A DNA stretch of 64,000 nt, from assembly GCA_017433415.1 (NCBI GenBank), contig JAFRHI010000027.1, positions 20,615 through 84,614 of the forward strand, in the 5' to 3' direction. The notes beneath the pieces were generated by a model. That model saw only the letters and a list, made by a program, of their open reading frames with translations, ran no database searches and was not told the DNA's origin. Numbering within the stretch: position 1 is the first letter of the stretch; each line of letters starts with the position of its first letter. Both the position numbers and the translations under genes were made by a program. Source of the DNA: Bacilli bacterium. Lineage in GTDB: Bacteria > Bacillota_I > Bacilli_A > RF39 > UBA660. This document shows, one piece after another, positions 1,127-27,187 of the stretch.

Positions 1127-2332
1127 ATGGATGGAAATGCAAAGCATGATTTAGAGCACACAGCAGAGAAAACTGTTGTTGTATCTGAAAAATCAACAAA
1201 AATATTTGCAAGAATTTTTGGAAGGTTTATGAAAAGAGCAAATAGGTATTATCAAAAACATTTTTCGTCTTCCATGAAAGCTCTTAGAAGTGATGGACCT
1301 ACTAAGGAACTTTATGTTTCTCCACCACTTACAAGAGCAGAAGCAAAACAGATTATTACAGCTTGTAGAGAAAATAATGTTTTAATGGGAATTAAGAAGA
1401 TGGATCCGAATGGTGAACAAGGAAGAAATCAATCCCTTCATAAACAAGAAAAACTTGCAAAGAATGAAATTAAATATCATAAATGGGATGATAGAAGGAA
1501 GACATTTAAAAAGATACCTATTATTCATAACTTATGCAAAGGTATGGTTGATAGATACAAAAATTTATCCATTAAAGATGAACAAGATAATTTGGATGAA
1601 AGATATGTTTTAATCTTCAATAAAAGCAAATTATCTTTTTTAAATGAGCAATTAGAAAAAATACCACCTAATAGAGTTAAACAACATGCACAAAATGAAC
1701 TTGCTGATATAAATAAAGATGGTGTAATTGATGAGCGTGATTATGAACCAATGCAACCTAGAGGAATGAATTTAAAAGTATCTGATTTAAGCAAGGTAGG
1801 AGAAGATTTTGGCTCATGTGCTGTAAGAGATTATTTATCAAATTATTGTACACAAAGGATAACAAAAGAACAATACTGTGAAATAAGAGAACAATTATTT
1901 GAATTAAGGAGTCATGGTGCATGTGTATATAATGACAATGAAATGATAATTGCTATTCCTTCAGAAGATTTACAAGAATATAAAACATTTGCTCCACTTG
2001 ATAGACCAATTAAGGAATATGGAACTAATGGTGCAAGGGATATAGAAACAGAAAGCAATTCAAATGATATTATTGAATTAGAATTAAATAATTTTGATGA
2101 TTACAAATTATTTAAAGAAAAATATGAAAAGAAAGATTTTGTTGCTCAACACATGCCAGATGGCAAAACGACAGTTTTGGTTAAAGAAACTGATACGAAG
2201 GAGTTGGTTGAGAATAGTAAAAAAAAATCCAAGACGGCAGATTTAGTAAAAGAGGCAGATGAATTTGCCGAAAAGAATAATCCAATAGAAAAAGTATTAG
2301 ACAAGGAAGAGGAAGTAGAAATTGCTCGTTAA
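1127..2332 (+). CDS. PcfB-like (DUF3801-type) conjugation accessory protein
   Basis: 401 aa. Sits directly 5' of, and overlaps, the coupling-protein gene, as PcfB-type genes do in Gram-positive conjugative elements. Family call is from recall only. Confidence 0.4.
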   Translation: MDGNAKHDLEHTAEKTVVVSEKSTKIFARIFGRFMKRANRYYQKHFSSSMKALRSDGPTKELYVSPPLTRAEAKQIITACRENNVLMGIKKMDPNGEQGRNQSLHKQEKLAKNEIKYHKWDDRRKTFKKIPIIHNLCKGMVDRYKNLSIKDEQDNLDERYVLIFNKSKLSFLNEQLEKIPPNRVKQHAQNELADINKDGVIDERDYEPMQPRGMNLKVSDLSKVGEDFGSCAVRDYLSNYCTQRITKEQYCEIREQLFELRSHGACVYNDNEMIIAIPSEDLQEYKTFAPLDRPIKEYGTNGARDIETESNSNDIIELELNNFDDYKLFKEKYEKKDFVAQHMPDGKTTVLVKETDTKELVENSKKKSKTADLVKEADEFAEKNNPIEKVLDKEEEVEIAR

Positions 2333-11848: not shown

Positions 11849-11850
11849 AA

Positions 11851-12066
11851 ATGAATAACGAATATATAAAAAAATTATTTGAAGAGAATAAAGAAAAGTT
11901 TGTTCAAGCAGGTATGGATATATTATCACCTGAGGATCTAAAAGATACAATGATTTCTTATATTACTTCAAATATGCAATATGATTTTGATATTGATGTT
12001 TTAGAAAGTAAATTATTTAATCAAGATACTATTGAGCAAGACTTAGAAGAAGATTTAGAGAAGTAA
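11851..12066 (+). CDS. hypothetical acidic protein (tail EEDLEK)
   Basis: 71 aa ORF, tightly packed after the previous gene. Confidence 0.5.
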   Translation: MNNEYIKKLFEENKEKFVQAGMDILSPEDLKDTMISYITSNMQYDFDIDVLESKLFNQDTIEQDLEEDLEK

Positions 12067-12083
12067 ATTTTTTTAGTTTAAAT

Positions 12084-12111
12084 GTCTACTATTGTGGACA
12101 AAAGAAAGGAT
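12084..12111 (+). promoter_or_regulatory. conserved 28-nt block, copy 1: imperfect palindrome GTCTAC-TATT-GTGGAC plus SD
   Basis: tgtctactattgtggacaaaagaaagga ends 8 nt before the ATG of the XRE gene; 27/28 identical to 15564..15591. Confidence 0.55.
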
Positions 12112-12119
12112 AAAAATTT

Positions 12120-12497
12120 ATGAAAAATAATTATAGTTTTATTGCTGAAGTATTTAGAAAAAGAAGAGTTGAATTAGGTTATAGTAAAAGAAAACTAGCA
12201 GCCATTATTGGAATTAGTGATACAGAAATATCAAGAATTGAACATGGTGAAAGAGAAAACTACAATTTAGTTACATTAATAAAATTATGTGAAGTTTTAA
12301 AAATAGACTTTATTCATTTGCTAGTATTAGCTGGTTATCTTCCATCAGATCAAATTAATAACGAGGATAATATAACAGAAATGGAATCATTGTTAGATGA
12401 TGAATGTGATGATATTAATGATGAAGAATGTGATGCTTGTCCATTATGTGAACCAATAGAAATTATTATAACTTTAGTATCTGGGAGGGATAAATAA
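12120..12497 (+). CDS. XRE-family helix-turn-helix transcriptional regulator
   Basis: 125 aa; HTH signature LGYSKRKLAAIIGISDTEISRIEHGER; acidic C-terminal part with C-x7-C-x2-C-x2-C. Confidence 0.75.
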   Translation: MKNNYSFIAEVFRKRRVELGYSKRKLAAIIGISDTEISRIEHGERENYNLVTLIKLCEVLKIDFIHLLVLAGYLPSDQINNEDNITEMESLLDDECDDINDEECDACPLCEPIEIIITLVSGRDK

Positions 12498-12835
12498 TGG
12501 ATATTTTAATAATTAGTAATGAGAATAATATTCTTCATATTTTTAATGATGGATATAAATGTGATTATACAATCTATAATTCAAAAGGTCATAACATGGA
12601 TGGTGGTGTATTAGATTTTGATGAAAAAGTATCTAATAAAGAATCAACAGATGAGATTATAAAAATGATTCAAGATAGATTTTTATTTAATGCACCATAT
12701 ACTTGTTTATCTGGTGATAAAGCACAAAATTTATTAGAGCTAATTGAAATGGAAGATTATAAAAATTTACAGCACCAAATAGAGAATAAGTCAGTAAATA
12801 ATAAAGAAGTAAATGATATAGAAATTAATATTTAA
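12497..12835 (+). CDS. hypothetical protein (tail NDIEINI)
   Basis: 112 aa; start overlaps the upstream stop (taATG). Confidence 0.5.
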   Translation: MDILIISNENNILHIFNDGYKCDYTIYNSKGHNMDGGVLDFDEKVSNKESTDEIIKMIQDRFLFNAPYTCLSGDKAQNLLELIEMEDYKNLQHQIENKSVNNKEVNDIEINI

Positions 12836-12852
12836 TAGAAAAGGAGAAAAAT

Positions 12853-13434
12853 ATGAGAAAATTTTATGATGATTTTATTCAACAAAAACCAAAAGAAATG
12901 TCAAAGACGCTTGAGGATATAGTTTTTAAATATACTAATCCTGAAACGCATCAACCAACAAAAGTTCCTGCTTCTCACTTTGAAAAAGAATTTGGACAAG
13001 AAGTAGAAAGGGCAATTAGCCAATCAGTTAATAGACAATTTTTAACAATTATGTATGGACAATTAAATGCTTTAAAGAAAGATAATGAACAACTTTTTTA
13101 TCAAGCTTTAATATGTATTGATAACAATTTAAATCCAAAAGATTTAAGACTATCAGAACAAATCGCAATAAATCATACTTATGATTATATTCAAGATAAA
13201 CAAAGAACTGAGAAAAAAGAATTCCATTTCTTCAATCAAGAAATATCTAATGAATATCATAGAGCAATCACAGATCCTAATATTCAAGCAGAGGCAATGG
13301 AAATATCTAATTTTCTTGAAAATCAAGAATCAATTGAATTAAATCGTATAAAACAGGATACTGAACAACAACTTAATTCAAATTCTAATAATGAATATGA
13401 AATGGAAAATGACGATATGGAAATGGATTATTAA
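12853..13434 (+). CDS. hypothetical protein (tail DDMEMDY)
   Basis: 193 aa; SD aaaggag. Confidence 0.5.
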   Translation: MRKFYDDFIQQKPKEMSKTLEDIVFKYTNPETHQPTKVPASHFEKEFGQEVERAISQSVNRQFLTIMYGQLNALKKDNEQLFYQALICIDNNLNPKDLRLSEQIAINHTYDYIQDKQRTEKKEFHFFNQEISNEYHRAITDPNIQAEAMEISNFLENQESIELNRIKQDTEQQLNSNSNNEYEMENDDMEMDY

Positions 13435-13455
13435 TTTATATGAAAGGAGATTTGT

Positions 13456-14472
13456 ATGTATAGTAAAATAGAAAACTTTTTATTAGATGTAAAGGCAAAT
13501 GATGAAGTCTTTGATTATCAACAAAAAGAGTATAAACTTCATAAAGAGCATTATGATGATAGATTTGATCTTTTATATATTAAAGAAAATCAAAACACTT
13601 TAAGACAAAATCGCAGTTATTATAATTTGTGTGGTTATTATGATAACAAAGACCATTGTATATATAATGCTGAAAATTTTTTAACTGATAAAATACAAGA
13701 AAGTGATGTTATAAGGTTTGACAGATTTGATAATTTAAATCAAAAAATTTTAAATGAAGTAAAACAATATATAAATGACTATTGTTTTGCTCACGAAAAA
13801 GATTTAACTAAATTAGCTCAAGAAAAATATGATACAAAGGATGATACAAGATTATTTGAATATAAAAAAGAAATTAATAAACTTTTTATTACTAAGGATA
13901 ATCCAACAGCAGATTTAACAATCTCAATCAGTAATTATGACATTGATTATGATAATAATATTATTTCATATTTAAATAATCCAAAAAAAGCAATAGAAGA
14001 AATATCTAAAAGATTTATTGAAAGAAACGGAAAAAGTTATGGATTAGAATTATTAATTTATCATGATAAGGTAAGCTATTTAAAAGAATTACAAGAGAAT
14101 AAAGATAATGCTTATGACAATATACATTCTTGTAAAAAAATTCTAGATGCTATTAAGTATGTAGATGCTAAAACAGTTAATATTACAATTCAATATGGTG
14201 AGAAGAGTTTAACATTTAAATATGAACTTGATGATTTAAGAAGTGCATTATCAAGTGGTAAAATGGAAACTTCAACTTATAATAATGGATATGGAATAGT
14301 ATCAGAATTTGTTAAAGCAAATGATCCAAATATTACTGATAAGAATCAATGGAGATGTCCATTTTCAATTCCTACAATTAGTTCTATAACAAGTGGTAGA
14401 AACGAAATATATTCCAAAGAAACCCCAAGCATTGAAAAAGAAGTAGAAGAAGATTTGGAAATAGAAATGTAA
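13456..14472 (+). CDS. hypothetical protein, paralog 1 of a tandem pair (tail EEDLEIEM)
   Basis: 338 aa; colinear similarity to 14494..15549, including an identical 19-aa block DAKTVNITIQYGEKSLTFK. Confidence 0.6.
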   Translation: MYSKIENFLLDVKANDEVFDYQQKEYKLHKEHYDDRFDLLYIKENQNTLRQNRSYYNLCGYYDNKDHCIYNAENFLTDKIQESDVIRFDRFDNLNQKILNEVKQYINDYCFAHEKDLTKLAQEKYDTKDDTRLFEYKKEINKLFITKDNPTADLTISISNYDIDYDNNIISYLNNPKKAIEEISKRFIERNGKSYGLELLIYHDKVSYLKELQENKDNAYDNIHSCKKILDAIKYVDAKTVNITIQYGEKSLTFKYELDDLRSALSSGKMETSTYNNGYGIVSEFVKANDPNITDKNQWRCPFSIPTISSITSGRNEIYSKETPSIEKEVEEDLEIEM

Positions 14473-14493
14473 TTTAAGGGGTGATAATTAAAT

Positions 14494-15549
14494 ATGGATA
14501 TAGAAAGATTTCTTTTAAACTCTGATGTTAATGATTTAATTTTTGAAGGTACTTATAATCATCAAAAAATTCATAAAGAAAAATTTGATGATAGATTTGT
14601 AGTTATATATACAAAAACAAATCATAGTTATTTATCACAAGATAATTATGAAGTAGCTGGATATTTGGATACAAAAGATAGAGTATTATATGATTGCACT
14701 TATTATCTAAATGAATTATTACCTAAAGAAAAGAATTTAATTAAACAAAGTTCTTTTGGCGTTTTAGGTGAAAAACTATGGAATGAAATAGAGGATTATA
14801 TTGAAAAATATTCTTTTGCAAATGAAGATAAACTAAAAGAAATCGCTACTGAAAAATATGACAATTTAGAAGATTATAGAAAAGAAGTTTACAAACGAGA
14901 TGTCAGGCAACAATTTGTTCAAGAAATGAAACCAATAATAAAACTTCAAAGATCATATTCCAGTTATGAGTTTACTAATCTTCCAGAGTATAGAGGTCAT
15001 TATATAGATGTGGAATATTTAAATAGTCCTCAAGAAACTGTTGAAAAATATTCTAATAAAATAATAGAAACTATTGATGATTATAGAAATAATAAAGAAA
15101 ATTTAGGATTAGAATTATTAATCTTTCGTGATAAAATCAAATATTTAGATGTTATAAAAGATAATAAAAATAATGAATTCAAGGATCTATATATTAAAAG
15201 AGAAATATATAATTCTATCAAAGATATAGATGCTAAGACAGTTAATATTACAATTCAATACGGTGAGAAGAGTTTAACATTTAAATTTGATTATAGTGCA
15301 TTAAAGAGAGATTTAACAAATGATAGTAAAGGTAGCTGTGGATATGGTAAATCGTATGAAGAAGTATCAAATTTTATTAAGGAGAATTCTGATAAAGAAG
15401 TGAATAGATGGACAGAAGACTTTAATTTTTCAAATATAACTTCTATTACCTATGGAAAGAATGAATTATATCATCACGATTTATCATCTTCAAAAAATAT
15501 GGAAGAAGATATTCAGGAACAAGAGGAAGACATTGAAATAGAAATGTAA
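14494..15549 (+). CDS. hypothetical protein, paralog 2 of a tandem pair (tail EEDIEIEM)
   Basis: 351 aa; see paralog 1. Confidence 0.6.
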   Translation: MDIERFLLNSDVNDLIFEGTYNHQKIHKEKFDDRFVVIYTKTNHSYLSQDNYEVAGYLDTKDRVLYDCTYYLNELLPKEKNLIKQSSFGVLGEKLWNEIEDYIEKYSFANEDKLKEIATEKYDNLEDYRKEVYKRDVRQQFVQEMKPIIKLQRSYSSYEFTNLPEYRGHYIDVEYLNSPQETVEKYSNKIIETIDDYRNNKENLGLELLIFRDKIKYLDVIKDNKNNEFKDLYIKREIYNSIKDIDAKTVNITIQYGEKSLTFKFDYSALKRDLTNDSKGSCGYGKSYEEVSNFIKENSDKEVNRWTEDFNFSNITSITYGKNELYHHDLSSSKNMEEDIQEQEEDIEIEM

Positions 15550-15563
15550 TATTTTACTCAAGG

Positions 15564-15591
15564 TGTCTACTATTGTGGACTAAAGAAAGGA
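15564..15591 (+). promoter_or_regulatory. conserved 28-nt block, copy 2
   Basis: tgtctactattgtggactaaagaaagga ends 7 nt before the TTG start at 15599. Confidence 0.55.
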
Positions 15592-15598
15592 GGATTTA

Positions 15599-15979
15599 TT
15601 GATAAATAAAGAGAATAAGTGGTTAGATTTTATTGCAGGAATAAATACAATCATGGTATCTAATGAAGAAGAATTTAATAAGTTTCGGAAATTCTTAGAT
15701 GATTTGGGTATAGGAAAAATATTAAATGATTATAGAACATTTTCAGATTGGCAGCATTTATCTGAAATAAATAATAAGAATCCAAATTATATTGTTTTTG
15801 AATTTCAAATAACAAAAGGTTTGACATTTGGATATACAAAAGAATCATCTAAAGATTGGTTTGGCGTAGAACCATTAAATGTTAAAGATTTGGAATCGTT
15901 TTATAAGAATAGTAAATTATTAAGTATGAAATTTGAAAAGAAAAATGAATTAGATTTAGATGAAGAAATAGAAAAATAG
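15599..15979 (+). CDS. hypothetical protein (TTG start; tail LDEEIEK)
   Basis: 126 aa; SD aggagga upstream of the TTG. Confidence 0.5.
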   Translation: MINKENKWLDFIAGINTIMVSNEEEFNKFRKFLDDLGIGKILNDYRTFSDWQHLSEINNKNPNYIVFEFQITKGLTFGYTKESSKDWFGVEPLNVKDLESFYKNSKLLSMKFEKKNELDLDEEIEK

Positions 15980-15995
15980 AAAAGGAGAAATTTAT

Positions 15996-16367
15996 ATGTT
16001 TAATCAAACTTTACTTGTAGGTAGAATTGTAGCAAATCCAGAAATAAGACAAACAGAAGCAGGAAAAAATTATGCTAGTATTACAATAGCAGTTCCAAAA
16101 CCATACACCAATGAAGAAGGAGTTCATGAAGCTAATTTTATAGATTTAACAGCGTGGAATGATAGGGTAGTAAAAAAATCAGATCATTTATTAAAGGGTG
16201 ATTTAGTTCTTATCGAAGCATCAATACAAACTAGATTAGTAGAAAAAGATGGACAAAAAATTAAATATACTGATATTGTTGCTGATAATATTAATTATTT
16301 AAATCATAGCAAAAACCAAGACAAAACATTACAAAACGATGAGGTTGAAGAGGAGATGGATATATGA
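15996..16367 (+). CDS. ssb: single-stranded DNA-binding protein
   Basis: 123 aa; OB-fold N-terminus MFNQTLLVGRIVANPEIRQTEAGKNYASITIAV; acidic C-terminal tip EVEEEMDI. Confidence 0.8.
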   Translation: MFNQTLLVGRIVANPEIRQTEAGKNYASITIAVPKPYTNEEGVHEANFIDLTAWNDRVVKKSDHLLKGDLVLIEASIQTRLVEKDGQKIKYTDIVADNINYLNHSKNQDKTLQNDEVEEEMDI

Positions 16368-16567
16368 TAATTAGAGATGATATTGAACTTGAAATAGTAT
16401 ATTCAAAAGAAGAAAAAATTGTTTATATTGGTACACCTTCATCTTCTGGTGCTAAGTATAAATGCGAAACAATTGATGATTTAAAAAAATCAATTGATAG
16501 TTATATTGAAAGCTATGTAGAATATGATAAAATTCCAACACATGAAGATATTGAAATAGATAAATAA
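16364..16567 (+). CDS. hypothetical protein (tail EDIEIDK)
   Basis: 67 aa; ATGA overlap with ssb; GGAG SD lies inside the ssb tail. Confidence 0.5.
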   Translation: MIIRDDIELEIVYSKEEKIVYIGTPSSSGAKYKCETIDDLKKSIDSYIESYVEYDKIPTHEDIEIDK

Positions 16568-16570
16568 TTA

Positions 16571-17128
16571 ATGAAAACTAGAATTTTTATTGATATGGAT
16601 GGTACTCTTGCTGAATGGAGAGATATAAAATCAAATAGTGAACTTTATGAAAAAGGTTATTATGAATCTTTAAAACCTAATAATTTTTTGTTAGAAGAAG
16701 TAAAGAATCTTATTAAAGAGGGAAAGGATATTTATATTCTTTCTTCTTTTTTAAGTGATAGTAATTATGCTCTAAAAGAAAAAAATCTTTGGTTAAATAA
16801 ATATCTTCCAGAGTTACCAATTCAAAAAAGAATTTTTGTTCCTTATGGTGATGTTAAATATAAGTATTTACCAAGTAAGATAACAGCGTTTGATTATTTA
16901 GTTGATGATCATACAAAAAATCTTCTTGATTGGAAAGATGCAGGAGGAACTGGAATAAAGTTTTTAAACGGAATAAATCATATTAAAGGAGTGTGGCAAG
17001 GATTACTTTTAAGAGAAGATGAAGATATATCTAAGAATTTTAACTGGATTCTTGATAATTGTTTTAAAGAACCTATAAAGTCTTTTGAATTTCAAAATTT
17101 AGAAGAAGATTTAGAAGTGGAAATATGA
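16571..17128 (+). CDS. HAD-superfamily 5'(3')-deoxyribonucleotidase (NT5C-like)
   Basis: 185 aa; HAD motif I FIDMDGTLAEW; length and layout resemble NT5C-type enzymes; tail EEDLEVEI. Confidence 0.6.
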   Translation: MKTRIFIDMDGTLAEWRDIKSNSELYEKGYYESLKPNNFLLEEVKNLIKEGKDIYILSSFLSDSNYALKEKNLWLNKYLPELPIQKRIFVPYGDVKYKYLPSKITAFDYLVDDHTKNLLDWKDAGGTGIKFLNGINHIKGVWQGLLLREDEDISKNFNWILDNCFKEPIKSFEFQNLEEDLEVEI

Positions 17129-17340
17129 AAGGAGAATATAAATTGAATAAAGCATTAGAAAAGAAAATTGAAAAATTAGAAGGTTTAAAAAAGAAGGAAT
17201 TAGAAAAAATAGATGCGATTAATGTTGTAATATCTGACTATGATAAGCAATTAAAAGTTTTATATGATTATAAAAAGCAACAAGAAAAAATTTATCAAAT
17301 GCAACAAGATCTTGATACCAAAATTTTAGGAGATAAATAA
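17125..17340 (+). CDS. hypothetical coiled-coil protein
   Basis: 71 aa, Lys/Glu heptad-like sequence; ATGA overlap upstream. An in-frame TTG at 17143 after aaaggag is an alternative start. Confidence 0.45.
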   Translation: MKGEYKLNKALEKKIEKLEGLKKKELEKIDAINVVISDYDKQLKVLYDYKKQQEKIYQMQQDLDTKILGDK

Positions 17341-18284
17341 TGAATTTAGTTCGTGAAAAAATATCTCCGAACGGATATAGAAGATTAAATGTTGATATAA
17401 ATATTCAAGAAAATGAAGAACCTAACCACGATAATGTGTTTTGGTATGGAGGAGAAGTAGCAAGTATAAAGTCTTCAGAAGGAGAATATAAAATTGTTGC
17501 TAGAGGAATAGTATCGTGTAATTTAATTGCAAAAAAAGATTATATAATGCCTGATGGTGAAGAAATAAAAGCAGGTAATATAATAGCTCATGTTAAAGAT
17601 AAAAATGAAGTAGGAGCATTTAAAAAAGAAATGTCATTATATATAAAAAATGACAAAGAATTATCTGATATTATATATAACAAACACAAATTATTTAAAT
17701 TAGAAGTTGATAATAATAATTGGTTTGAATTGTCTTTTTATAATAATGAAGGAGAAATTGAGTATGATGATGTTATGAGTTCATTGTATTTAAAAGATGC
17801 AGTAGAAGAAGTTTTAGATATGATTTGGGAACAAAATAAAGATAATAAATTATATTCAATTTACTGTCGTGTAGCAAATTCAGATGGTGGAACATTAAAT
17901 GCAATAAAAAGCCAAATCGATAAATGTTTATATTCAATCAATCAAAATGCTAAAGGAAATACAGAACTAATTAGAATTTATTTTGATAGATGTTCTGGAT
18001 TAAAGAATCATGAAAAAGCATTTGGAAAAGCATTAGAAGATATAAAGAATAATAAGACACTAGATTTATATTCTGTTAATATTTCACGATTATCAAGAGA
18101 TGTAAAAAGAATGATAGATATAAGGGAAATATTAAAAGATAGTGAATCAGATATATTTGTTGTTAATGAAAATGCTTATGTATATAAAGAATTATTTAAT
18201 CAAATTACCATTCCAATATTTTATGAAATGACAGATAAAGAAATAGCTGAAGAACCTGAAATGGATGAAATAGAATATGAGTAA
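17340..18284 (+). CDS. unknown N-terminal domain fused to a resolvase-like (serine recombinase catalytic) domain lacking the nucleophile Ser
   Basis: 314 aa. The C-terminal half aligns by eye with gamma-delta resolvase: YCRVANSD (vs Y-x-RVS-T), FDRCSG (vs D-K-ASG), ISRLSRD (vs LDRLGRD). The catalytic Ser position is Ala. Confidence 0.6.
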   Translation: MNLVREKISPNGYRRLNVDINIQENEEPNHDNVFWYGGEVASIKSSEGEYKIVARGIVSCNLIAKKDYIMPDGEEIKAGNIIAHVKDKNEVGAFKKEMSLYIKNDKELSDIIYNKHKLFKLEVDNNNWFELSFYNNEGEIEYDDVMSSLYLKDAVEEVLDMIWEQNKDNKLYSIYCRVANSDGGTLNAIKSQIDKCLYSINQNAKGNTELIRIYFDRCSGLKNHEKAFGKALEDIKNNKTLDLYSVNISRLSRDVKRMIDIREILKDSESDIFVVNENAYVYKELFNQITIPIFYEMTDKEIAEEPEMDEIEYE

Positions 18285-19224
18285 ACTTCCTAAAACAAGA
18301 CAAGAATTAATTGATATGTATATCAAAAGTTTAGAGGAAGGAAATATTCCATGGGAGCAAATGTGGAAGACTTCCATTCCTGAAAATGCTATTTCTGGAA
18401 TAAAATATAGAGGTGTAAATAATTTATATTTATCATACATTGCATATAAAAGAGGATATAAAGATAATAGATGGATAACATTTAATCAAATGGGAAAAAA
18501 GCATTGGAAGTTTATTAATTCTGCAAAAGGTCAAGGTGTACCAGTAGAATGGTGGGCAATGAAAAATAAAAGAGATAATAAGATAATTAGTTTTGAAGAA
18601 TATAATAAAATAATAGAAGAAAATCCAGATAAAGAAAAAGAATTTAAAATAAGTAAAATGAGTTATACAGTTTTTAATGGTGATTTAGTTGATGGATTAG
18701 TTAATGATAAAGTAGAACAAAAACAAGAAATTATTAGCAATGATTATATTCAAAATATTATTGATAATATTGGTGTAGGATATAAAGAAGAAGGAGAAGA
18801 AGCTTATTATAGTCCTTCTAAAGATATGGTTGTTTTACCACCATCAAATAGTTTCAAAACAAGCAATTCTTATTATGCTACACAGCTTCATGAACTTGCT
18901 CATTCAACAGGACATGAAACAAGATTAGCAAGAAATCTTAAAGATCATTTTGGAACAGAGGGTTATGCTAAAGAAGAATTAAGAGCAGAGATTAGTTCTT
19001 CTTTTTTAATGCAAAAGTTTCATCTAGAAGAAGATACAAGACATTTAAATAATCATAAAAGTTATGTTAAAAACTGGTTAGAAATATTAAAAAACAATCC
19101 ACAAGAATTATTTAATGCAATAACTGATGCTAATAAAATTGTTGATTATTTAGAAGAAAATAGTATTAAAAAAGAGAAAAATCAAACCATTGATTTAGAA
19201 CAAGAAATGGAGATGGATATATGA
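18277..19224 (+). CDS. ardC: ArdC-like antirestriction protein (ssDNA-binding N-domain + zincin metalloprotease domain)
   Basis: 315 aa; N-terminal ...EEGNIPWEQMW...YRGVNNLYL...; C-terminal HExxH QLHELAHSTGHE. Confidence 0.8.
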   Translation: MSKLPKTRQELIDMYIKSLEEGNIPWEQMWKTSIPENAISGIKYRGVNNLYLSYIAYKRGYKDNRWITFNQMGKKHWKFINSAKGQGVPVEWWAMKNKRDNKIISFEEYNKIIEENPDKEKEFKISKMSYTVFNGDLVDGLVNDKVEQKQEIISNDYIQNIIDNIGVGYKEEGEEAYYSPSKDMVVLPPSNSFKTSNSYYATQLHELAHSTGHETRLARNLKDHFGTEGYAKEELRAEISSSFLMQKFHLEEDTRHLNNHKSYVKNWLEILKNNPQELFNAITDANKIVDYLEENSIKKEKNQTIDLEQEMEMDI

Positions 19225-19562
19225 TTGAAGAATTTAATAAAATAAAAGAATATTCGGCATCATTTAATAATTATAATATTTATGATTATTGTTTCTTCAT
19301 AGGATTAACAAATGTAAAAGAAAATATACCTAATGATGAACTTGAATTATTAATAAAAAAATGTGGAGAAGTTCATAGTGATTATACAGATCCAATTGAA
19401 TTAGGTCAATCACTTGCAAACGAAATATATACAGAAAAAAATATAACAATAGATGATATAAAGTCATTGACGGTGGATGAATTCTATAACTGGTACGATG
19501 ATGGAAGAGAAGTTGGAAATCCAATTGAAATAGATTCTTTAGATGAAAGGGAGATTGATTAA
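19221..19562 (+). CDS. hypothetical protein (tail LDEREID)
   Basis: 113 aa; ATGA overlap with ardC. Confidence 0.5.
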   Translation: MIEEFNKIKEYSASFNNYNIYDYCFFIGLTNVKENIPNDELELLIKKCGEVHSDYTDPIELGQSLANEIYTEKNITIDDIKSLTVDEFYNWYDDGREVGNPIEIDSLDEREID

Positions 19563-19563
19563 T

Positions 19564-19896
19564 ATGAATGTATTCTCTATATATAAAGCAATGCCAGAAG
19601 TTCATAGAAATAATTTAAAATCTTATTATATTCTTGAAGGAATATATGATTGTTTTCCTGATATAGCTGAAGAAGATGCTAAATTTATTCATAACATTTC
19701 ATTAAAAGTTGAAAATGAAAATATAAATCCTTATTCAATTTCGCATTATTTGACAGATCATTATACAAGAGGAAATATAACAAAAGAAGATTTAGAAAAA
19801 GCATCCTCTGGTGAAATTTGTGAAGCAGTATATTTTAATAATTTAGATTATATGAATTTAGAAAAAGAGTTAAATGAGGAGGAAAAAGAGATATGA
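19564..19896 (+). CDS. hypothetical protein (tail EEEKEI)
   Basis: Track ORF starts at 19543. The ATG at 19564 follows SD agggag and sits 1 nt after the upstream stop. Weakly similar to the preceding ORF (NITKEDLEKAS vs NITIDDIKSLT). Confidence 0.5.
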   Translation: MNVFSIYKAMPEVHRNNLKSYYILEGIYDCFPDIAEEDAKFIHNISLKVENENINPYSISHYLTDHYTRGNITKEDLEKASSGEICEAVYFNNLDYMNLEKELNEEEKEI

Positions 19897-20291
19897 AATC
19901 ATATAAATCAGATAGAAAAAATAATAAAAAAGCGATTAGAAAAATTCAAAAATTAATTGATTCTTCAAAATTAAATCCTTTTATTTTATTTCATTATACA
20001 GCTCTAAAAGAATCAGAATTAGAAAGTAATAGAGAATCAATGGTAAGTTTAATTAAATATAATAATAAGGTTATTTCACAATTAAAAGAAGAAATAAAAG
20101 ATAAAAATATTTGCGAAGTTCATAAAGAAATTGTTAAAAAATATATTGATGAATTGGAGTATTCTAATGGAACTTCTAAGGAAGTTATTAGAATAATAAA
20201 TCTTAAAAAAAGAGAATTTTATCATAAAAAATTACAAAAAAATTACAATAAATTTTTCAAAAAAAATACTAAACTGTCAGCGACTATTTAG
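19893..20291 (+). CDS. hypothetical basic protein adjacent to the candidate oriT
   Basis: 132 aa, Lys-rich; ATGA overlap upstream. Confidence 0.5.
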   Translation: MKSYKSDRKNNKKAIRKIQKLIDSSKLNPFILFHYTALKESELESNRESMVSLIKYNNKVISQLKEEIKDKNICEVHKEIVKKYIDELEYSNGTSKEVIRIINLKKREFYHKKLQKNYNKFFKKNTKLSATI

Positions 20292-20406
20292 TGGGTTTTA
20301 GGGATATTCCCTAACAAGCTTAGGGGTGTGTCAACACCATGCTTGATAGATTATATTTCTATACTCTGTAAGGGGTACTTTCTACTGAAGTTAGAAAGGA
20401 GCAAAT
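20292..20406. other. candidate origin of transfer (oriT)
   Basis: 115-nt, relatively GC-richer intergenic region just upstream of the relaxosome genes. Hairpins: ttaggga-tat-tccctaa (20298-20314); aagc..ggtgt-gtca-acacc..gctt (20316-20344); ctttcta-N7-tagaaag (20378-20398). Confidence 0.45.
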
Positions 20407-20967
20407 ATGGAATTTAAAGTTCAGGAAAAGTGGAGAGTACAGCAAAAATTTAATATGAGTGATAAGCAGATAGATATGGCAATAAAAAAGATGATAAAAA
20501 GACATCCGTTAGAAGAATGGATAGATGAGAGAATAGCATCAAATGGTCAAAGAGTTGTATATTTTAAATTAGAGTTTGTTGAATGGTTAAGAGATGTATA
20601 TTCAAATGGAAAAAAGTATTATTTAGATTTGGATATAGAATTTTTCAAAAGACAAATTTTACGATTAGAAAAAGAACTAGGTATCCCTCATAAAGAGCTA
20701 GAGTATAATCCTATGACGGTTAGAGAATTGTCTGTTTTTTTTGATAGAAGCATTAATACAATATATGTAGCATTAATTCGTATGAGAAAAAATAATTTTT
20801 CTCAACAATATTTAGATGATGGAAAAGTTTTAGTTTCAAAAGAAGGAGTTAAATGGTTAAGTGAAAATTATTTTCGTACTTCATATTTAGAAAATTTAGA
20901 ATTATATAAATTAGATCTTCAAGAAAAGAAAAGGATAATGTATGAACAATCAAGACGAAAAATATAA
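20407..20967 (+). CDS. putative DNA-binding protein, possible relaxosome accessory factor
   Basis: 186 aa; two internally similar segments (...GQRVVYFKLEFVEWLRDVY / ...DGKVLVSKEGVKWLSENYF); HTH-like MTVRELSVFFDRSINTIYVALIRMRK; position between oriT and mobC-like gene. Confidence 0.35.
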   Translation: MEFKVQEKWRVQQKFNMSDKQIDMAIKKMIKRHPLEEWIDERIASNGQRVVYFKLEFVEWLRDVYSNGKKYYLDLDIEFFKRQILRLEKELGIPHKELEYNPMTVRELSVFFDRSINTIYVALIRMRKNNFSQQYLDDGKVLVSKEGVKWLSENYFRTSYLENLELYKLDLQEKKRIMYEQSRRKI

Positions 20968-21742
20968 CAAATTAAGAAGACAAAAGATTAATGTGATGCT
21001 TAATGAAGAAGAACGAAAAATAATTAAAGAAAAAGCTATTAAGTATGGCTTTGGAGATTGCTTAGCTGAATATATAAGAGCAGCCTGTATATATGAAAAT
21101 ATTTATATTGAGGATGTTCATGGAAAAGAAAAAGTTTGCAACAAGGTTAGTGAATATATAAAAGAATTGAGAGAAATATTAAATGCTCAAAGAAAATTAA
21201 TGAAAAATGTTTTTCTGACAAAAGATGATATTGATAAAATAAAAAATCAAAATCAACAAATCATAGAAAAGATAGGCAGATTATCAAGAATAATAATTTC
21301 TTCATTGTCTGTTGTTTCGGAAAAGAAAATTCAACAAAGAATTAATATGATAGAAAAATATGATTCAGATAAACTAATACCTAAGATACAAATAGCTGGT
21401 GAATGGGGATTGGTGTTAAGACCTTCTAATTTATATCATCCTAATGAACCAGCTATATATATTGTTTTTCTACCAGAATACTATGATGAAATTGAAATCA
21501 ATAATTTTGATCCAGATAAGTTTAAAGAAAAAATTGATAACTATCGTCATATTGCTATGAAAAAGGAATTATATATTTCTATATATCATTTCAATGACAA
21601 ATTAAGATATGGTATTGTGATGCCTTTTGTAGATAAAGAATCAGCAACAAAATATGCAGAAGAAATGGAAGCAGATTATGTCTATGATTTATATAGTCAG
21701 CAAGTTGAAATGGATGGTGATATTTATTCCAGCAACAGCTAG
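20942..21742 (+). CDS. MobC-like relaxosome protein with long C-terminal extension
   Basis: 266 aa; N-terminal RRQKINVMLNEEERKIIKEKAIKYGFGDCLAEYIRAA resembles the MobC/RHH mobilisation signature; directly upstream of the relaxase. Confidence 0.55.
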   Translation: MNNQDEKYNKLRRQKINVMLNEEERKIIKEKAIKYGFGDCLAEYIRAACIYENIYIEDVHGKEKVCNKVSEYIKELREILNAQRKLMKNVFLTKDDIDKIKNQNQQIIEKIGRLSRIIISSLSVVSEKKIQQRINMIEKYDSDKLIPKIQIAGEWGLVLRPSNLYHPNEPAIYIVFLPEYYDEIEINNFDPDKFKEKIDNYRHIAMKKELYISIYHFNDKLRYGIVMPFVDKESATKYAEEMEADYVYDLYSQQVEMDGDIYSSNS

Positions 21743-23402
21743 ATGGTCAGTGCACGGAGTGAAGGGAAGAATTGATTGTATTAACTATATTAAAAATCCA
21801 GATAAAACAAAAGACGGAACTTTAGTAACTGGAATAAACTGTTCTTCAGAATTTGCAGCTTATGAGATGCAGATAAATAGTCAAAAATTCCGTATTGAAG
21901 AAGACAATGATAGTAGAACTTGCTATCATGCTTATCAATCATTTGATCCGAAAGAGAAAAATTTAACTCCAGAAGAAGTGCATCAAATGGGAATAGAACT
22001 GGCTAAGAGATTATACCCTGATTTTCAAGTAGTAGTATGTACTCATGTAGACCATTTGCATTTGCATAATCACTTTTGCATATCAGCAGTAAATCTAAAA
22101 GGTAGAAAACTAGAAGACAGATTATCAAATCCTATTGAAGGTTTATATGGATTAAGAGATGTAAGTGATCAGATTGCATTAGAACACGGACTTCATATAA
22201 TTAAAGACGCTCCTAAGATTGGACATTATCATAAGAATAAATACTTATATGATATTGCTAACAAATCTTGGAGGCAACAAATTATAGAAATGATTGATAC
22301 ATTAAAAGATAGATGCTATTCATTTGATGAGCTATTAGAACAACTTGCTTTAGAAGGATATTTAATTAAGCATGGTAAAAATATTCGTATAAAACCTTAT
22401 GGCAAAGAAAGATATGTAACAATGAAAATATTAGGTGATGATTATAGTGAAGAAGCATTAAAACTATTTTTTAGAGAAAAGAGAAAAAATCAAAAGGTTA
22501 TTAATTTTGGAGAATATAAATTAAATGTGAATGATAGTGATATTTTAAATATATATGATCAATTAGCAAGACTATCAAAACATTCAGTTTTATATACTAT
22601 GCAAGATTTGGATTTAAATTCAGATTATTACAAATATTATAATTCTCGCTATTTAGAAGTTAAGCGTTATCATCAATTAGTAGATACTATTAATTTTTTA
22701 AATAATCACGAAATATACAATTATGATTCATTAGAAAATCAAATAGACCAAATAAAGAATGAAATTGAAGAAAGGGAAGAAGAATATCATTCTTTATTAT
22801 CTAAACACGAAACATTACAATTAAGAGTTCCATTATGCAATTTATATATTAAATATTTAGATGATTATAATGGATACTTAGAACAACAAGATATATATCC
22901 AGTTGATGCTGAACTACCTAATGAAGTAAAAGCTTTTTTAGATGTAAAAGCAGAATTGAATGTTGATACTCCTGAAGAAGTAGAAGATATTATCTCAGAA
23001 GCGAATAAGATGAAAATTGATATGAATAAAAAATATGCTTATTTATCTTATTTAAAAAACAAAGCTAGTGAATTAGAGAAAATAAAAGGAATTTCATTAG
23101 AGAACGAAAAAGGATATATTAAAAGTATATCTATTAGTAAAAAGATGATTGATGAAAAACGCTCATCATCAGATGAATATTGTGTCCGTATTCCATATAG
23201 TGAATACTTTTTTTATGTTCCTAAAAAAAGTGTTGCATGGATTAGTTATGACACTAGAGGAATTATTTATTTGGTAGATGATAAAGAGTATATATTATAT
23301 GATCAGTATGATAAAGAAGTAGAAAGAGTAAATGGAGAAGAAGTGGAAAAAATATCACAGGAAGAAAAGAAAAAAGTAAACGAATATTATAAAGGAAAAT
23401 AA
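21714..23402 (+). CDS. MobA/VirD2-family conjugative relaxase
   Basis: His-rich motif HVDHLHLHNHFCISAVN; CYHAYQSFDP motif. The track ORF begins at 21654 inside the upstream gene; ATG 21714 (MVIFIPATARW...) is more plausible. Confidence 0.8.
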   Translation: MVIFIPATARWSVHGVKGRIDCINYIKNPDKTKDGTLVTGINCSSEFAAYEMQINSQKFRIEEDNDSRTCYHAYQSFDPKEKNLTPEEVHQMGIELAKRLYPDFQVVVCTHVDHLHLHNHFCISAVNLKGRKLEDRLSNPIEGLYGLRDVSDQIALEHGLHIIKDAPKIGHYHKNKYLYDIANKSWRQQIIEMIDTLKDRCYSFDELLEQLALEGYLIKHGKNIRIKPYGKERYVTMKILGDDYSEEALKLFFREKRKNQKVINFGEYKLNVNDSDILNIYDQLARLSKHSVLYTMQDLDLNSDYYKYYNSRYLEVKRYHQLVDTINFLNNHEIYNYDSLENQIDQIKNEIEEREEEYHSLLSKHETLQLRVPLCNLYIKYLDDYNGYLEQQDIYPVDAELPNEVKAFLDVKAELNVDTPEEVEDIISEANKMKIDMNKKYAYLSYLKNKASELEKIKGISLENEKGYIKSISISKKMIDEKRSSSDEYCVRIPYSEYFFYVPKKSVAWISYDTRGIIYLVDDKEYILYDQYDKEVERVNGEEVEKISQEEKKKVNEYYKGK

Positions 23403-23416
23403 GGAGATGATAAAAA

Positions 23417-24157
23417 TTGAGTATTGCTAAAAAAATGAATTATTATTTTAAAGGATTAAAAGAACCACCAAAGTTTGTATATAACGCTGAAGATAGAAAA
23501 CTATTTGAAGAATACATTAAAGAGAATATAGGCAATTTTGATAAAGTTTATCATGAATTATATTCTCCAGATGTTCATTTAGATATTTTAATCATTCCAC
23601 CAGATTCTAAAAATAATTTTTATAAATTAGTTACAAGAGGATTAGGTGCTTATAAAATGAATGTTCCAGATGTTATAAAGGATGAAAGATTAGATAGAGC
23701 AGAATTAATTTTATATTTACCACCAGATTGGAATTTTGATTTTGAAAAAGAAGAAAATGGATGGGTTATAAGTCAAATAAAGAATATTGCTAGAACTCCT
23801 ATAATGGAAGATTCTTGGATAGGATTTGGTCATACTTTTTCTGAAGATGAGAAGGCAACAATACCATTTGCAAGTAATACAAAGTTTTCTAGTACACTTT
23901 TGCTCAACGCTTTAAATAAAGATTACGAGTTTTTAGATTTAACATTACCTAGTAAAGGTAGAATTAATTTTTATCAAATATTTCCTTTATATAAGGAAGA
24001 AATGCTATATAAACAACAAAATGGTGTAGAAGCATTGATGGAATTATTTTCCGATGAAGATCTTATTCCTGTTGTAAATATTAGTAGGAAAAACTACTGT
24101 GATGACTTAATAAATAAAAATATAGAAAAAGAAGAGGAGAACGAAATAGAGATATGA
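23417..24157 (+). CDS. SUFU-like (suppressor-of-fused family) immunity-type protein
   Basis: 246 aa; TTG start after aaggag; ...YKLVTRGLGAYKMNVP...AELILYLPPDWNFD...WVISQIKNIARTP... resembles bacterial SUFU-like domains; tail EENEIEI. Confidence 0.5.
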   Translation: MSIAKKMNYYFKGLKEPPKFVYNAEDRKLFEEYIKENIGNFDKVYHELYSPDVHLDILIIPPDSKNNFYKLVTRGLGAYKMNVPDVIKDERLDRAELILYLPPDWNFDFEKEENGWVISQIKNIARTPIMEDSWIGFGHTFSEDEKATIPFASNTKFSSTLLLNALNKDYEFLDLTLPSKGRINFYQIFPLYKEEMLYKQQNGVEALMELFSDEDLIPVVNISRKNYCDDLINKNIEKEEENEIEI

Positions 24158-24444
24158 AATATTTAGATAACGAATTAGATTTAATTGATCATATTCTATA
24201 TAAACACAAAATTTATGATATAAATCTAGAATATGATGATGACAATAATATAATTGCTTATGATGAAGATAATAAATGGAAAGGCAAGGAATTCTATGAT
24301 TTCTTATATGATGAAGTCTTTGTTTATAATAGTCATGGCATGGTTGATTTATTAACTAGAGAAGAATTAAGACATTTAGATGAATATAGAAAGAAATATG
24401 AAATATCGAATGAAAAAGAACTAAATGAGGAGATAGAAAAATAA
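24154..24444 (+). CDS. hypothetical protein (tail NEEIEK)
   Basis: 96 aa; ATGA overlap upstream. Confidence 0.5.
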   Translation: MKYLDNELDLIDHILYKHKIYDINLEYDDDNNIIAYDEDNKWKGKEFYDFLYDEVFVYNSHGMVDLLTREELRHLDEYRKKYEISNEKELNEEIEK

Positions 24445-27114: not shown

Positions 27115-27128
27115 TATAGATGATTGCC

Positions 27129-27151
27129 ATGGTGATAATTTTTTTATCACC
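27129..27151. repeat. perfect palindrome TGGTGATAA-TTTTT-TTATCACCA overlapping repeat copy 1
   Basis: Read directly; 15 nt after the recombinase stop. Candidate recombinase binding or att half-sites. Confidence 0.6.
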
Positions 27152-27160
27152 AACGGTAAT
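27139..27160 (+). repeat. 22-nt direct repeat, copy 1 (ttttttatcaccaacggtaatc)
   Basis: Identical to 27199-27220; start-to-start spacing is 60 nt. Confidence 0.9.
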
Positions 27161-27187
27161 CGGTAATGTGCTTACTATTAGTGATAA

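Follow-up and report, generated by a model that had tools for sequence, protein, structure and literature searches.

Genes of the element and their C-terminal ends

The window, the whole stretch of 64,000 nucleotides analysed here, contains an integrative conjugative element (ICE) and chromosomal genes. All of the genes described lie on the forward strand. ORFs were scored as tail-positive when [DE][ILMVFYC][DE] occurred in the last 7 residues together with at least three D/E in the last 8. Fractions given in brackets with a gene are the tail-positive members of its protein family.

A VirD4-type coupling protein (T4CP) is encoded at 2322..4265. It contains the Pfam domains T4SS-DNA_transf and TraG-D_C, has no tail, and its homologues carry the name 'CD1115 family'. 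Its start is overlapped by the stop of the gene for a 401-aa uncharacterised protein (1127..2332), which had no PDB or Pfam match and ends in EEEVEIAR (2306-2329). This is a sixteenth tail-like end, outside the range covered by a preliminary description that had listed 15. The gene at the same position upstream of the coupling protein also has a tail-like end in the elements L091, L093 and L094. The 401-aa protein is a candidate adaptor or substrate.

The 15 listed tails all read exactly as claimed when we translated them, but two of them were weaker than the rest. The 71-aa uncharacterised protein at 11851..12066 ends in DLEEDLEK (12040-12063; 10/10), with a 53-nt spacer after the gene. The next, a 112-aa LPD16-like protein (12497..12835), has one of the weak tails, VNDIEINI (12809-12832). 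Only one of the 16 members of its family passed the strict rule, and ends such as IELDK, IEIER and NIEK keep the core. Two uncharacterised proteins follow, one of 193 aa (12853..13434; NDDMEMDY, 13408-13431; 12/12) and one of 338 aa (13456..14472; EEDLEIEM, 14446-14469; 17/17), for the latter of which no PDB fold match was found. A 351-aa paralogue of the latter (14494..15549; EEDIEIEM, 15523-15546) precedes a 49-nt spacer and a 126-aa uncharacterised protein (15599..15979; DLDEEIEK, 15953-15976; 4/4). The single-strand DNA-binding protein (SSB), an OB-fold protein matching Pfam SSB (15996..16367), ends in EVEEEMDI (16341-16364; 6/9). It is followed by a 67-aa uncharacterised protein (16364..16567; HEDIEIDK, 16541-16564; 4/4) and an NT5C-like nucleotidase (Pfam NT5C, 16571..17128; EEDLEVEI, 17102-17125). 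A 314-aa protein whose C-terminal half contains the catalytic domain of a serine recombinase (17340..18284; EMDEIEYE, 18258-18281; 8/8) lies before the anti-restriction protein ArdC (18277..19224), in which Pfam recognised ArdC-N and a zincin MPTase domain and which ends in EQEMEMDI (19198-19221). Of the two uncharacterised proteins after ArdC, the 113-aa one (19221..19562) ends in SLDEREID (19536-19559; 6/6). The 117-aa one (19543..19896) has the second weak tail, a borderline LNEEEKEI (19870-19893; 7/13), whose end EEEKEI fails the rule.

An intergenic gap at 20292..20406 contains the inverted repeat TAGGGATATTCCCTA and is a candidate oriT. Downstream of it are genes for a NikA-like protein and a MobA/VirD2 relaxase. 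Transcription of the cargo genes on its upstream side runs towards it, the geometry of a leading region. The primase and two basic proteins beside the putative oriT (19893, pI 9.8; 20407, pI 9.4) are conserved and tail-less. Farther on are a SUFU-like protein (Pfam SUFU, 23417..24157; EEENEIEI, 24131-24154; 4/4) and a 96-aa uncharacterised protein (24154..24444; LNEEIEK, 24418-24441).

Enrichment and physical character of the tail

Roughly half of the soluble proteins that the conjugative element encodes end in one common, short and floppy tail of acidic and greasy residues. It follows the consensus ...[DE]-hydrophobic-[DE]-hydrophobic-[DE]-x, with a final residue that is hydrophobic, Tyr or Lys/Arg. 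No description of such a tail was found in the literature searched. By the rule, 13 of the 21 cargo ORFs (11567-24444) were tail-positive, compared with none of the 45 chromosomal ORFs beyond 27114 in the 64-kb window (Fisher p = 1e-8), a stronger signal than had been claimed. Interior 8-residue segments of the same proteins matched in 1.9-3.3% of cases, and the background in other sequence was about 2-3%. Three outside controls gave similarly low values: 63 other ArdC-containing loci (21/952 ORFs, 2.2%), a Fusobacterium conjugative plasmid of 26-29% GC (2/73) and viral contigs containing ArdC (5/180). Runs of at least five alternating acidic and hydrophobic residues numbered 86 at C-termini, no more than two residues from the end, and 154 across the roughly 99,000 interior positions, an enrichment of about 40-fold. 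We also used a rule-free comparison, in which the last six residues of non-homologous proteins within one locus were scored pairwise with BLOSUM62. In the window, 11.8% of the C-terminal pairs reached a score of at least 10, versus 0.7% for internal hexamers.

The tail is predicted to be intrinsically disordered and lies at the extreme C-terminus. In AlphaFold models, residues 301-315 of ArdC had a pLDDT of 21-27 beside a well-folded body, and the 13456 protein had a pLDDT of 90 with values below 50 for tail residues 324-338. Docking of the ArdC tail in cis was not predicted. Only proteins lacking membrane segments carry the tail: a TM-like segment was absent from 159 of the 160 tail-positive proteins and present in 82 of the 244 tail-minus proteins. 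Each polypeptide carries one copy, polyvalent proteins included. For instance, a methylase-SNF2 polyvalent protein of 2542 aa in L028 ends in DEAELEM, and its earlier domain borders are free of copies. Where polyvalent-type domains are encoded as separate genes, each has its own tail.

Conservation by family and tail dialects

We surveyed protein families in the window and 17 related elements (L001-L017) from low-GC gut Bacilli, and the tail was conserved by family, close to all-or-none. About 13 unrelated families with at least three members were 100% tail-positive. The families of type IV secretion system (T4SS) parts, the HTH regulator, the NikA-like protein, the relaxase, the sortase and the recombinase were 0% tail-positive, in agreement with the earlier statement that T4SS structural proteins, relaxase and recombinase lack the tail. 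The pattern persists in families at 30-50% identity. Among 120 ArdC homologues, down to 53% identity, nearly all had an alternating tail; its residues vary, and E312 is at least 90% conserved. Tails were also present in elements of 51-55% GC, namely L028 and, from the cultured Faecalibaculum rodentium, L091 (EEEIEK, EREMEL, FDFEYEM and TEMEMEL in L091), and thus are not an effect of composition. A DNA methyltransferase is tagged in L083, which is a sister element within this ICE family, and Fic, ToxN-like and LPD-domain proteins are tagged in the more distant L028 and L091. The primase bears a tail in some elements. Tails are also present at the T4CP-anchored loci L091 and L093, in regions where the 22 kb read showed no ArdC.

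The tail behaves as a module. In the SSB of the element, the canonical ...D[IL]PF tip (acidic, of the ...DDIPF type) is swapped for the element tail. The [IL]PF tip is still present at the C-terminus of five SSBs from tail-less elements, and the SSB of L022 has ELPF followed by an appended tail. That a docking tip has been replaced speaks for a role of the tail as a docking motif between proteins. Pro-Phe, the defining feature of the SSB tip, is missing from the tail, which therefore is no mimic directed at the SSB partners of the host. The earlier suggestion of SSB-tip mimicry is thus correct only in part.

Close homologues of NT5C have an E-x-E-x-E-I tail or ELDICDEMY, the orthologue in L022 ends in EIDDEMDL, and distant homologues mostly have neither. 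Orthologues in the 13456 family have acidic, KNKEMER-type or ...GFELSM tails, with other dialects in distant ones. These dialects are lineage-specific, each common to unrelated neighbours within its own element: ...ER in L088, ...G.M in L090, ...LGKGR in L026 and ...G[LM]ER in L021/L024. The window and L088 both have about 25% GC and yet use different dialects, which favours a co-evolving reader encoded by the element over a conserved host target, assuming that similar GC means related hosts.

Possible functions of the tail

Three readings of the tail, as a product of translational coupling, a polyvalent-protein linker or a recombination boundary, were rejected. Under the first, Glu codons would serve as the Shine-Dalgarno (SD) sequence of the next gene in an AT-rich composition where E, I, K and D are the commonest residues, which seems very improbable to us. 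The five ATATGA overlaps with GGAG inside the tail are correct as reported, and where the next start lay within 8 nt, an SD-like tetramer was found in 70 of 86 tails, with GAG at 32%. However, 67 of 74 tails with a more distant next gene had no SD-like sequence and GAG at only 8%, spacers longer than 30 nt followed 35 of 159 tails, and the spacer distributions were equal (medians of 5 nt for tail-positive and 6 nt for tail-minus ORFs). SD sequences are merely overlaid on the tail through synonymous GAG codons, so that the earlier caveat about coupling is right but concerns a minor effect. Nor does an SD explain the alternating hydrophobic positions. The tails at 51-55% GC and the low values for equally AT-rich and equally coupled ORFs of the chromosome (0/45) and the Fusobacterium plasmid (2/73) also speak against this reading. 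A vestigial linker or cleavage site from the break-up of polyvalent proteins is just as hard to credit. ArdC-N, MPTase, LPD16, LPD1, N6 methylase and SNF2 do belong to the polyvalent-protein repertoire (PMC5512222), but intact polyvalent proteins of tail-bearing elements have the tail only at the very C-terminus, with no internal copies at domain borders, and a vestige would decay rather than keep its pattern in families at 30-50% identity. Least probable of all is a conserved cassette boundary for modular DNA recombination. The match between two unrelated gene ends (14446-14469 and 17102-17125) is indeed 20/24, but it results from six of eight identical residues and a strong GAA/ATA codon bias. 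Orthologues retain the residue pattern and neither the residues nor the nucleotides (EEDLEIEM, NDDFDLER, EQDIELEI), GC-rich elements use other codons for the motif, and no shared repeat is longer than the tail itself.

Because the loci of our main collection were all anchored on ArdC, a link of the tail to the ArdC metallopeptidase is possible. The tail might be a turnover tag for this zincin or a host protease, allowing joint processing or removal after establishment. Processing by an ArdC-type peptidase has been proposed for polyvalent proteins (PMC5512222), and ArdC with its MPTase-PolyVal domain is present in every main-collection locus, by construction. An alternating strand would suit a zincin, as zincins bind extended substrates. 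We nevertheless consider this improbable: most ArdC-containing loci lack the shared tail (21/952 ORFs), the tail of ArdC is not predicted to dock in cis, tails occur at L091 and L093 with no ArdC in the 22 kb read, and acidic C-termini are not known as typical bacterial degrons. Somewhat less unlikely is that the tail tethers all of the establishment proteins to a single hub that the element encodes and that sits on the incoming DNA, for example a relaxosome protein, the relaxase or the primase, with no translocation involved. Such a role would resemble that of the SSB tip, or of the acidic tails that T7 gp2.5 and gp4 carry. Like SSB tips, the tail combines disorder with acidic and hydrophobic residues, and it stands in place of one such tip. 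Its dialects suit any element-encoded partner, and the tail-less primase and basic proteins beside the candidate oriT are conserved. Since the tail genes mostly have leading-region geometry, early expression in the recipient could suffice, with no need for translocation. However, NT5C, SUFU-like, Fic and ToxN-like proteins are tagged with no obvious need for a location on DNA, the primase itself bears a tail in some elements, and the partner was not found.

Related elements conserve the tail, and other lineages have different shared tails in its place, so it resembles an undescribed address label, whose most likely use is to send proteins through the mating channel. We favour, with about even confidence, a modular C-terminal linear motif by which proteins are delivered to the recipient; its receptor would be encoded by the element itself and would most probably be the coupling protein of the T4SS or else an adaptor. 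The soluble accessory proteins of the ICE (in the window SSB, ArdC, the NT5C-like nucleotidase, the SUFU-like protein and many uncharacterised ones) would be co-produced with the T4SS in the donor, bind the substrate-docking side of this system and enter the recipient alongside the DNA, where they would protect and establish it. Docking could be to the VirD4 coupling protein itself (2322-4265) or to an adaptor, for which the product of the gene immediately before it is a candidate. The suggestion of a T4SS signal had been made before; we infer it still, and it fits the new evidence best, given extreme C-terminal disorder, no membrane segments, one copy per polypeptide, tail-less T4SS structural proteins and lineage-specific tails. 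SSB, PsiB and other plasmid proteins are translocated by conjugative T4SSs (PMC8406263, PMC11288057), and transfer has been reported for ArdC and primases (PMC5512222). The relaxase, the canonical T4SS substrate, has no tail, which counts against delivery by the T4SS. Unlike the element of the window, pCF10, the best-studied element with the same class of T4SS, has no shared tails; this class of machinery therefore does not generally require one.

Among the ICE proteins, we found no DotM-like match and no complementary basic/hydrophobic strand for the tail, and the C-terminal 120 aa of the T4CP showed no charge complementarity with the tail dialect. By analogy, the T4CP would be the most likely receptor. 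In the Dot/Icm coupling complex, DotM reads acidic C-terminal signals, and its gene adjoins that of the coupling ATPase (PMC5802825), just as 1127..2332 adjoins the T4CP gene in the window.

The C-terminal tail and its conservation

All of the acidic tails that the preliminary description had listed at the ends of unrelated cargo proteins were confirmed by translation, and its nucleotide comparison of two gene ends and its five ATATGA junctions proved correct when re-read from the sequence. An ORF counted as tail-positive when its final 7 residues included [DE][ILMVFYC][DE] and 3 or more of its final 8 were D/E. Thirteen of the 21 cargo ORFs in the window fitted this definition, compared with none of the 45 chromosomal ORFs (Fisher test, 1e-8). 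Among 8-residue stretches taken from the interior of these proteins, 1.9-3.3% were positive. As independent backgrounds, 21/952 ORFs were positive in 63 further loci with ArdC, 2/73 in a Fusobacterium conjugative plasmid at 26-29% GC and 5/180 in viral contigs. C-termini were about 40-fold enriched in alternating acid/hydrophobic runs of at least 5 residues. In a motif-free test, the last hexamers reached a BLOSUM62 score of at least 10 in 11.8% of non-homologous pairs from the same locus, versus 0.7% for internal hexamers.

Eighty loci were gathered around ArdC relatives. In the 17 closest ones (ArdC 54-94% identical, 24-26% GC), 14-53% of the ORFs were tail-positive, with most loci at 30-50%, and all of the positive ORFs were on the coding strand of the element. 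Clustering showed a nearly all-or-none distribution of the tail among families: about 13 unrelated ones with at least 3 members were 100% positive; the T4SS components, HTH regulator, 71-aa protein, NikA-like protein, relaxase, sortase and recombinase were 0% positive. Within families the residues varied (EEDLEIEM, NDDFDLER, EQDIELEI) but the pattern was kept. Nearly all of 120 ArdC homologues, to 53% identity, kept the alternating tail, and position E312 in the ArdC tail was at least 90% conserved. In the tail logo, position -4 was acidic in 67%, -3 hydrophobic in 59% and -2 acidic in 63%, and position -1 was K/R, I, Y, M or E. Across 120 distinct tails, D/E made up 54-67% at positions -8 to -2, except -3 (33%). 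The tail is under selection.

The nearest relatives were metagenome-assembled genomes of uncultured gut 'Bacilli'. Public plasmids held no close relatives (best ArdC match below 40% identity), and phage contexts held distant ArdC relatives only, with tails at background. A GC-rich element, L028 (55% GC), kept the tail on its Fic protein (EEELEP), methylase-SNF2 protein (DEAELEM) and ArdC (DDYEMEL). So did an element of the cultured species Faecalibaculum rodentium at 51% GC, on a ToxN-like protein (EEEIEK), a primase (EREMEL), an LPD1 protein (FDFEYEM) and others; its coupling protein is 48% identical to that of the window.

Translational coupling, to which part of the signal had previously been attributed, was contradicted by the data as the source of the tail, and so was base composition. 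Tail-positive and tail-negative genes were equally far from the gene that follows them, and the tail was also kept at 51-55% GC. An embedded SD does not define the tails, as 74 of 160 are separated from the following start codon by more than 8 nt. Where the next start was within 8 nt, 70 of 86 tails contained an SD-like tetramer and GAG stood at 32%; where it was farther, 67 of 74 lacked such a tetramer and GAG stood at 8% (12.6% in gene bodies). The SD was thus superimposed on a tail that already existed, by the choice of synonymous codons. Two other proposals were contradicted as well. A vestigial polyvalent linker did not agree with the lack of internal tail copies at domain borders, and a recombination boundary did not agree with a nucleotide conservation no greater than shared residues and codon bias give.

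In AlphaFold models of ArdC (pLDDT 85.7) and the 338-aa protein encoded at 13456-14472 (pLDDT 90.2), the last 15 residues were below 50 in both. Thus, the tail is predicted to be a free, disordered C-terminal peptide. Docking of the ArdC tail in cis on its own peptidase was also considered and rejected, because AlphaFold predicts a disordered tail instead. Among the tail-positive proteins, 159/160 had no membrane-like segment; of the element proteins that lack the tail, one in three had such a segment. The tail was present on about half of the element's proteins without membrane segments. Taken together, the tail is conserved, disordered, strictly terminal and portable; each polypeptide has a single copy, however many domains it contains, and proteins with membrane segments lack it.

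Two of the tail-bearing genes (13456-15549) are tandem paralogues of a ~340-aa family, 39% identical and modelled at a pLDDT of 90. This family had no match in PDB, Pfam, PHROGs or NCBIfam and is a candidate new effector fold. Searches of PHROGs, NCBIfam and PDB sequences, and of PDB structures with Foldseek, yielded no usable names for the cargo of unknown function or for possible receptors. In the 314-aa tail-bearing protein encoded at 17340-18284, a serine-recombinase (resolvase) catalytic domain is restricted to the C-terminal half, at residues 174-293. No DNA-binding domain was recognisable after the catalytic domain, an unusual architecture for a recombinase.

Modularity and dialects of the tail

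The most informative result is the modularity of the tails and their division into dialects. The SSB of the ICE (15996-16367) ends in EEEMDI, with the tail where the canonical tip should be; throughout this family the tail takes the place of the tip. SSBs next to ArdC in five tail-less elements (L057-L059, L063, L065) had the canonical ends DIPF, ELPF or EIPF, and the SSB of a further locus, L022, retained ELPF with DDGLEP appended after it. NT5C orthologues had one of two tails, E-x-E-x-E-I or ELDI[CVA]DE[MF][YFC], and distant homologues mostly had neither. Members of the 13456 family at 30-43% identity had acid tails or K.K[DE][ML]ER tails, and more distant members ended in ...GFELSM or ...GMSMSM.

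Each dialect was common to unrelated neighbours within its own element. The ends DNYLER, KEQER, KNKEMER and SERDER were found in locus L088, and NMGGM, GFELSM and GMGMRM in L090. In L026, seven of the 10 + strand ORFs had a Gly-containing basic ...R tail, four of these being [LM]xGK[GS]R. In L021, L024 and L020 the dialect was ...G[LM]ER. The window and L088 have different dialects at an equal GC of about 25%. 

The second tail, ...D-I-[TCVA]-D-[DE]-[MF]-[YFC] (DITDDMY, DICDEMY, DIVDEMFE), was seen in loci L010, L012, L013, L016 and L017 and in P0151-P0178. Some elements have it alongside the main tail, and in some NT5C orthologues it stands in the main tail's place. Because it ends in an aromatic residue, it is closer in appearance to the SSB tip. 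Shared tails of other kinds (LGKGR, G.GR, G[LM]ER, GINSKR/GGNGKR, KNKEMER, G.x[ST]M) occurred on unrelated neighbouring proteins in L026, L043, L021, L024, L020, L031, L046, L088 and L090, and one conjugative lineage with its own shared tails was binned to Bacteroidaceae. On the evidence of these loci, the shared-tail phenomenon is much wider than the window.

Proposed recognition of the tail

A tail that is conserved, disordered, terminal, portable and present once per polypeptide, and that changes as a block from lineage to lineage, behaves like a recognition signal for a partner that the element itself encodes. That it is a shared recognition tag of some kind is very probable. The partner would read it as a recruitment signal of the T4SS. 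We infer this further step by analogy and regard it as an even call. It is favoured because C-terminal type IV secretion signals are the known systems that behave like the tail, because conjugative systems transfer proteins, and because DotM sets a precedent. Plasmid-encoded SSB, PsiB and other proteins of the F 'conjutome' are delivered to recipients and carry C-terminal signals (PMC11288057; PMC8406263), and ArdC and primases have been reported as transferred (PMC5512222).

The Dot/Icm (T4BSS) E-block is a Glu-rich C-terminal signal of Legionella effectors. Its reader is DotM, a member of the coupling complex that partners the coupling ATPase and is encoded beside it. Across species, the presence of the signal is reported to co-vary with basic residues on the DotM surface that binds it (PMC5802825). 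Like the E-block, the tail is an acidic, unstructured C-terminal stretch on many unrelated proteins, Glu-rich and net acidic within the last ~30 residues. Unlike it, the tail is strictly terminal and alternates with hydrophobics, whereas DotM-binding peptides are longer, Glu-rich and set back from the end. The putative substrates in the window are conjugation accessory proteins rather than eukaryote-directed effectors, and the T4SS is of the Gram-positive VirB4/VirD4/PrgI type. Pfam matches among the ICE proteins were to VirD4-type T4SS-DNA_transf/TraG-D_C, VirB4-like, PrgI, VirB6-like and CHAP, with none to DotM or DotN; the type IVB coupling complex (DotL/DotM/DotN) is absent.

Signals of the F system are heterogeneous, being positive, hydrophobic or internal as well as C-terminal (PMC11288057; PMC8406263). 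They differ from the acidic tail of the window, where a single motif marks about half of the soluble proteins. The net positive, Arg-rich C-terminal ~20 residues of VirB/D4 substrates were not seen in the window, whose tails are net acidic. The LGKGR and G.GR tails of L026 and L043 do resemble the positive/hydrophobic signals of VirB/D4 and conjugative T4SSs. A receptor was not found among the ICE proteins. Strands of alternating basic and hydrophobic residues complementary to the tail were limited to three short runs in these proteins, none of them in the coupling protein (2322-4265), and the net charge of the C-terminal 120 residues of coupling proteins showed no pattern across dialects. Plasmid pCF10, with a T4SS of the same class, had no shared tails.

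The main rival is a docking motif by which establishment proteins would be assembled on a hub in the recipient, and we consider it unlikely. Such docking is known from the SSB C-terminal tip (acidic, ...D-D-[IL]-P-F), which is likewise acidic and hydrophobic, disordered and at the extreme C-terminus. However, the tail lacks Pro-Phe, none of the window's tails having PF as its last two residues, and it is carried by at least 15 non-SSB proteins; the only OB-fold SSB under the tail is 15996-16367 (Pfam SSB). In phage T7, the acidic C-terminal tails of gp2.5 (SSB) and gp4 (helicase-primase) bind the same polymerase site. There too, unrelated proteins of one mobile genome dock on one hub through acidic tails whose last residue is aromatic or hydrophobic, but two proteins are involved instead of about fifteen, the setting is a phage replisome and the sequences are unrelated. 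A proteolytic tag tied to the ArdC peptidase ranks below the hub and seems improbable.

Polyvalent proteins, described by Iyer, Burroughs, Anand, de Souza and Aravind in 2017, share their ArdC-N, MPTase, LPD, methylase and SNF2 domains with these elements; they were proposed to be early effectors delivered with DNA (PMC5512222), the role that we also propose for the cargo here. The window contains ArdC-N, MPTase-PolyVal and LPD16 (below the gathering cut-off). Beyond it, N6_N4 methylase occurs in the sister element L083, LPD1 in the F. rodentium element and methylase-SNF2 in L028. Unlike polyvalent proteins, the cargo of the window consists of separate ORFs of 67-351 aa, each domain being a small protein with its own tail, and ArdC alone has the usual two-domain fusion. 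A shared C-terminal tail is not mentioned for polyvalent proteins (PMC5512222).

Extending the T4SS recruitment signal to all dialects, we tentatively suggest, with rather less than even confidence, that Gram-positive conjugative elements mark their injected protein set with short lineage-specific C-terminal address tags, each dialect co-evolving with its own T4SS receptor. The acid/hydrophobic tail would be the tag of the window element, and KNKEMER, G[LM]ER, LGKGR and G.x[ST]M would be those of others. Full-text literature searches turned up no description of such a tail, and the papers covered had nothing comparable for Gram-positive systems. A C-terminal recruitment signal is of a known kind; the tail is new in its sequence, host range and coverage. 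The choice of protein substrates by conjugative type IV systems is poorly understood, and the known signals are heterogeneous. If the suggestion is true, sequence alone would reveal all the proteins that an uncultured element injects, and tagged proteins that are not fused would be functional counterparts of the giant polyvalent proteins. A single tag would explain why the same domains are fused in some elements and separate in others, would flag dozens of unknown families as candidate anti-defence or establishment factors, and would offer a portable label for engineered protein delivery between gut Firmicutes. As the tag occurs in cultured F. rodentium, the idea is directly testable.

The element and its gene order

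The ICE extends from position 1 to ~27114 of the window (GC ~26%), with every gene on the + strand. Its first gene (142-1125), open to the window start, encodes the C-terminal part of a primase-like protein, for which an exact sequence look-up gave no record. The same C-terminus ends a 937-aa DnaG_N/Toprim primase in the sister element L083 (5991-8804 of that locus); therefore, the left part of the ICE lies outside the window. In L083, which was reached via the coupling protein, three further tagged proteins, including a DNA methyltransferase, are encoded upstream of the point matching the window start. After the primase-like gene come an unknown 401-aa protein (1127-2332) and, as classified by Pfam, a T4SS block of VirD4 coupling protein, VirB2-like, VirB6-like, PrgI-family, VirB4-like ATPase, CHAP hydrolase and two Ig-like proteins. 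The cargo of ~20 small genes follows, with Pfam assignments including an HTH regulator, LPD16-like protein, SSB, NT5C-like nucleotidase, serine-recombinase-domain protein and ArdC.

The sole sizeable gap within the element (20292-20406, 115 nt) contains the inverted repeat TAGGGATATTCCCTA and is a candidate oriT, just upstream of gene 20407 and the genes for a NikA-like protein and a MobA/VirD2 relaxase. The relaxases of this family have a conserved basic C-terminal end (...NEYYKGK, NDYYKNK). The right end encodes a SUFU-like protein, a small ORF, a sortase and, as the last gene, a large serine recombinase (25474-27114). The coupling protein, VirB4 ATPase, cell-wall hydrolase, relaxase and recombinase lie in one block, with an interrupted chromosomal gene adjoining. 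By gene content, the element is an integrative conjugative element of the Gram-positive VirB4/VirD4/PrgI type.

Next to the recombinase, within the region 25474-27631, lies a C-terminal piece of the spore-coat gene cotE that matches residues 97-176 of Pfam CotE and whose reading frame is open upstream as far as ~27215. Between the two genes, the 22-nt sequence TTTTTTATCACCAACGGTAATC is present twice, at ~27136 and ~27207. Like the skin and SPbeta elements, the ICE seems to have inserted into a gene for sporulation, and a candidate attachment site is present.

A 27-nt repeat, GTCTACTATTGTGGAC[A/T]AAAGAAAGGA, occurs at 12084-12110 and 15565-15591 with 26/27 identity and holds the imperfect palindrome TGTCTAC-TATT-GTGGACA. 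The copies lie in two ~50-nt gaps, ahead of the HTH gene 12120 and gene 15599; none was expected by chance. The repeat is probably an operator or promoter that splits the cargo into units.

A chromosomal sortase (54563-55549) is homologous to that of the ICE (24447-25187), and a small ORF with an acidic end precedes each of them (54378, DDEEVI; 24154, NEEIEK). The two chromosomal genes are possibly a remnant or relative of the ICE module.
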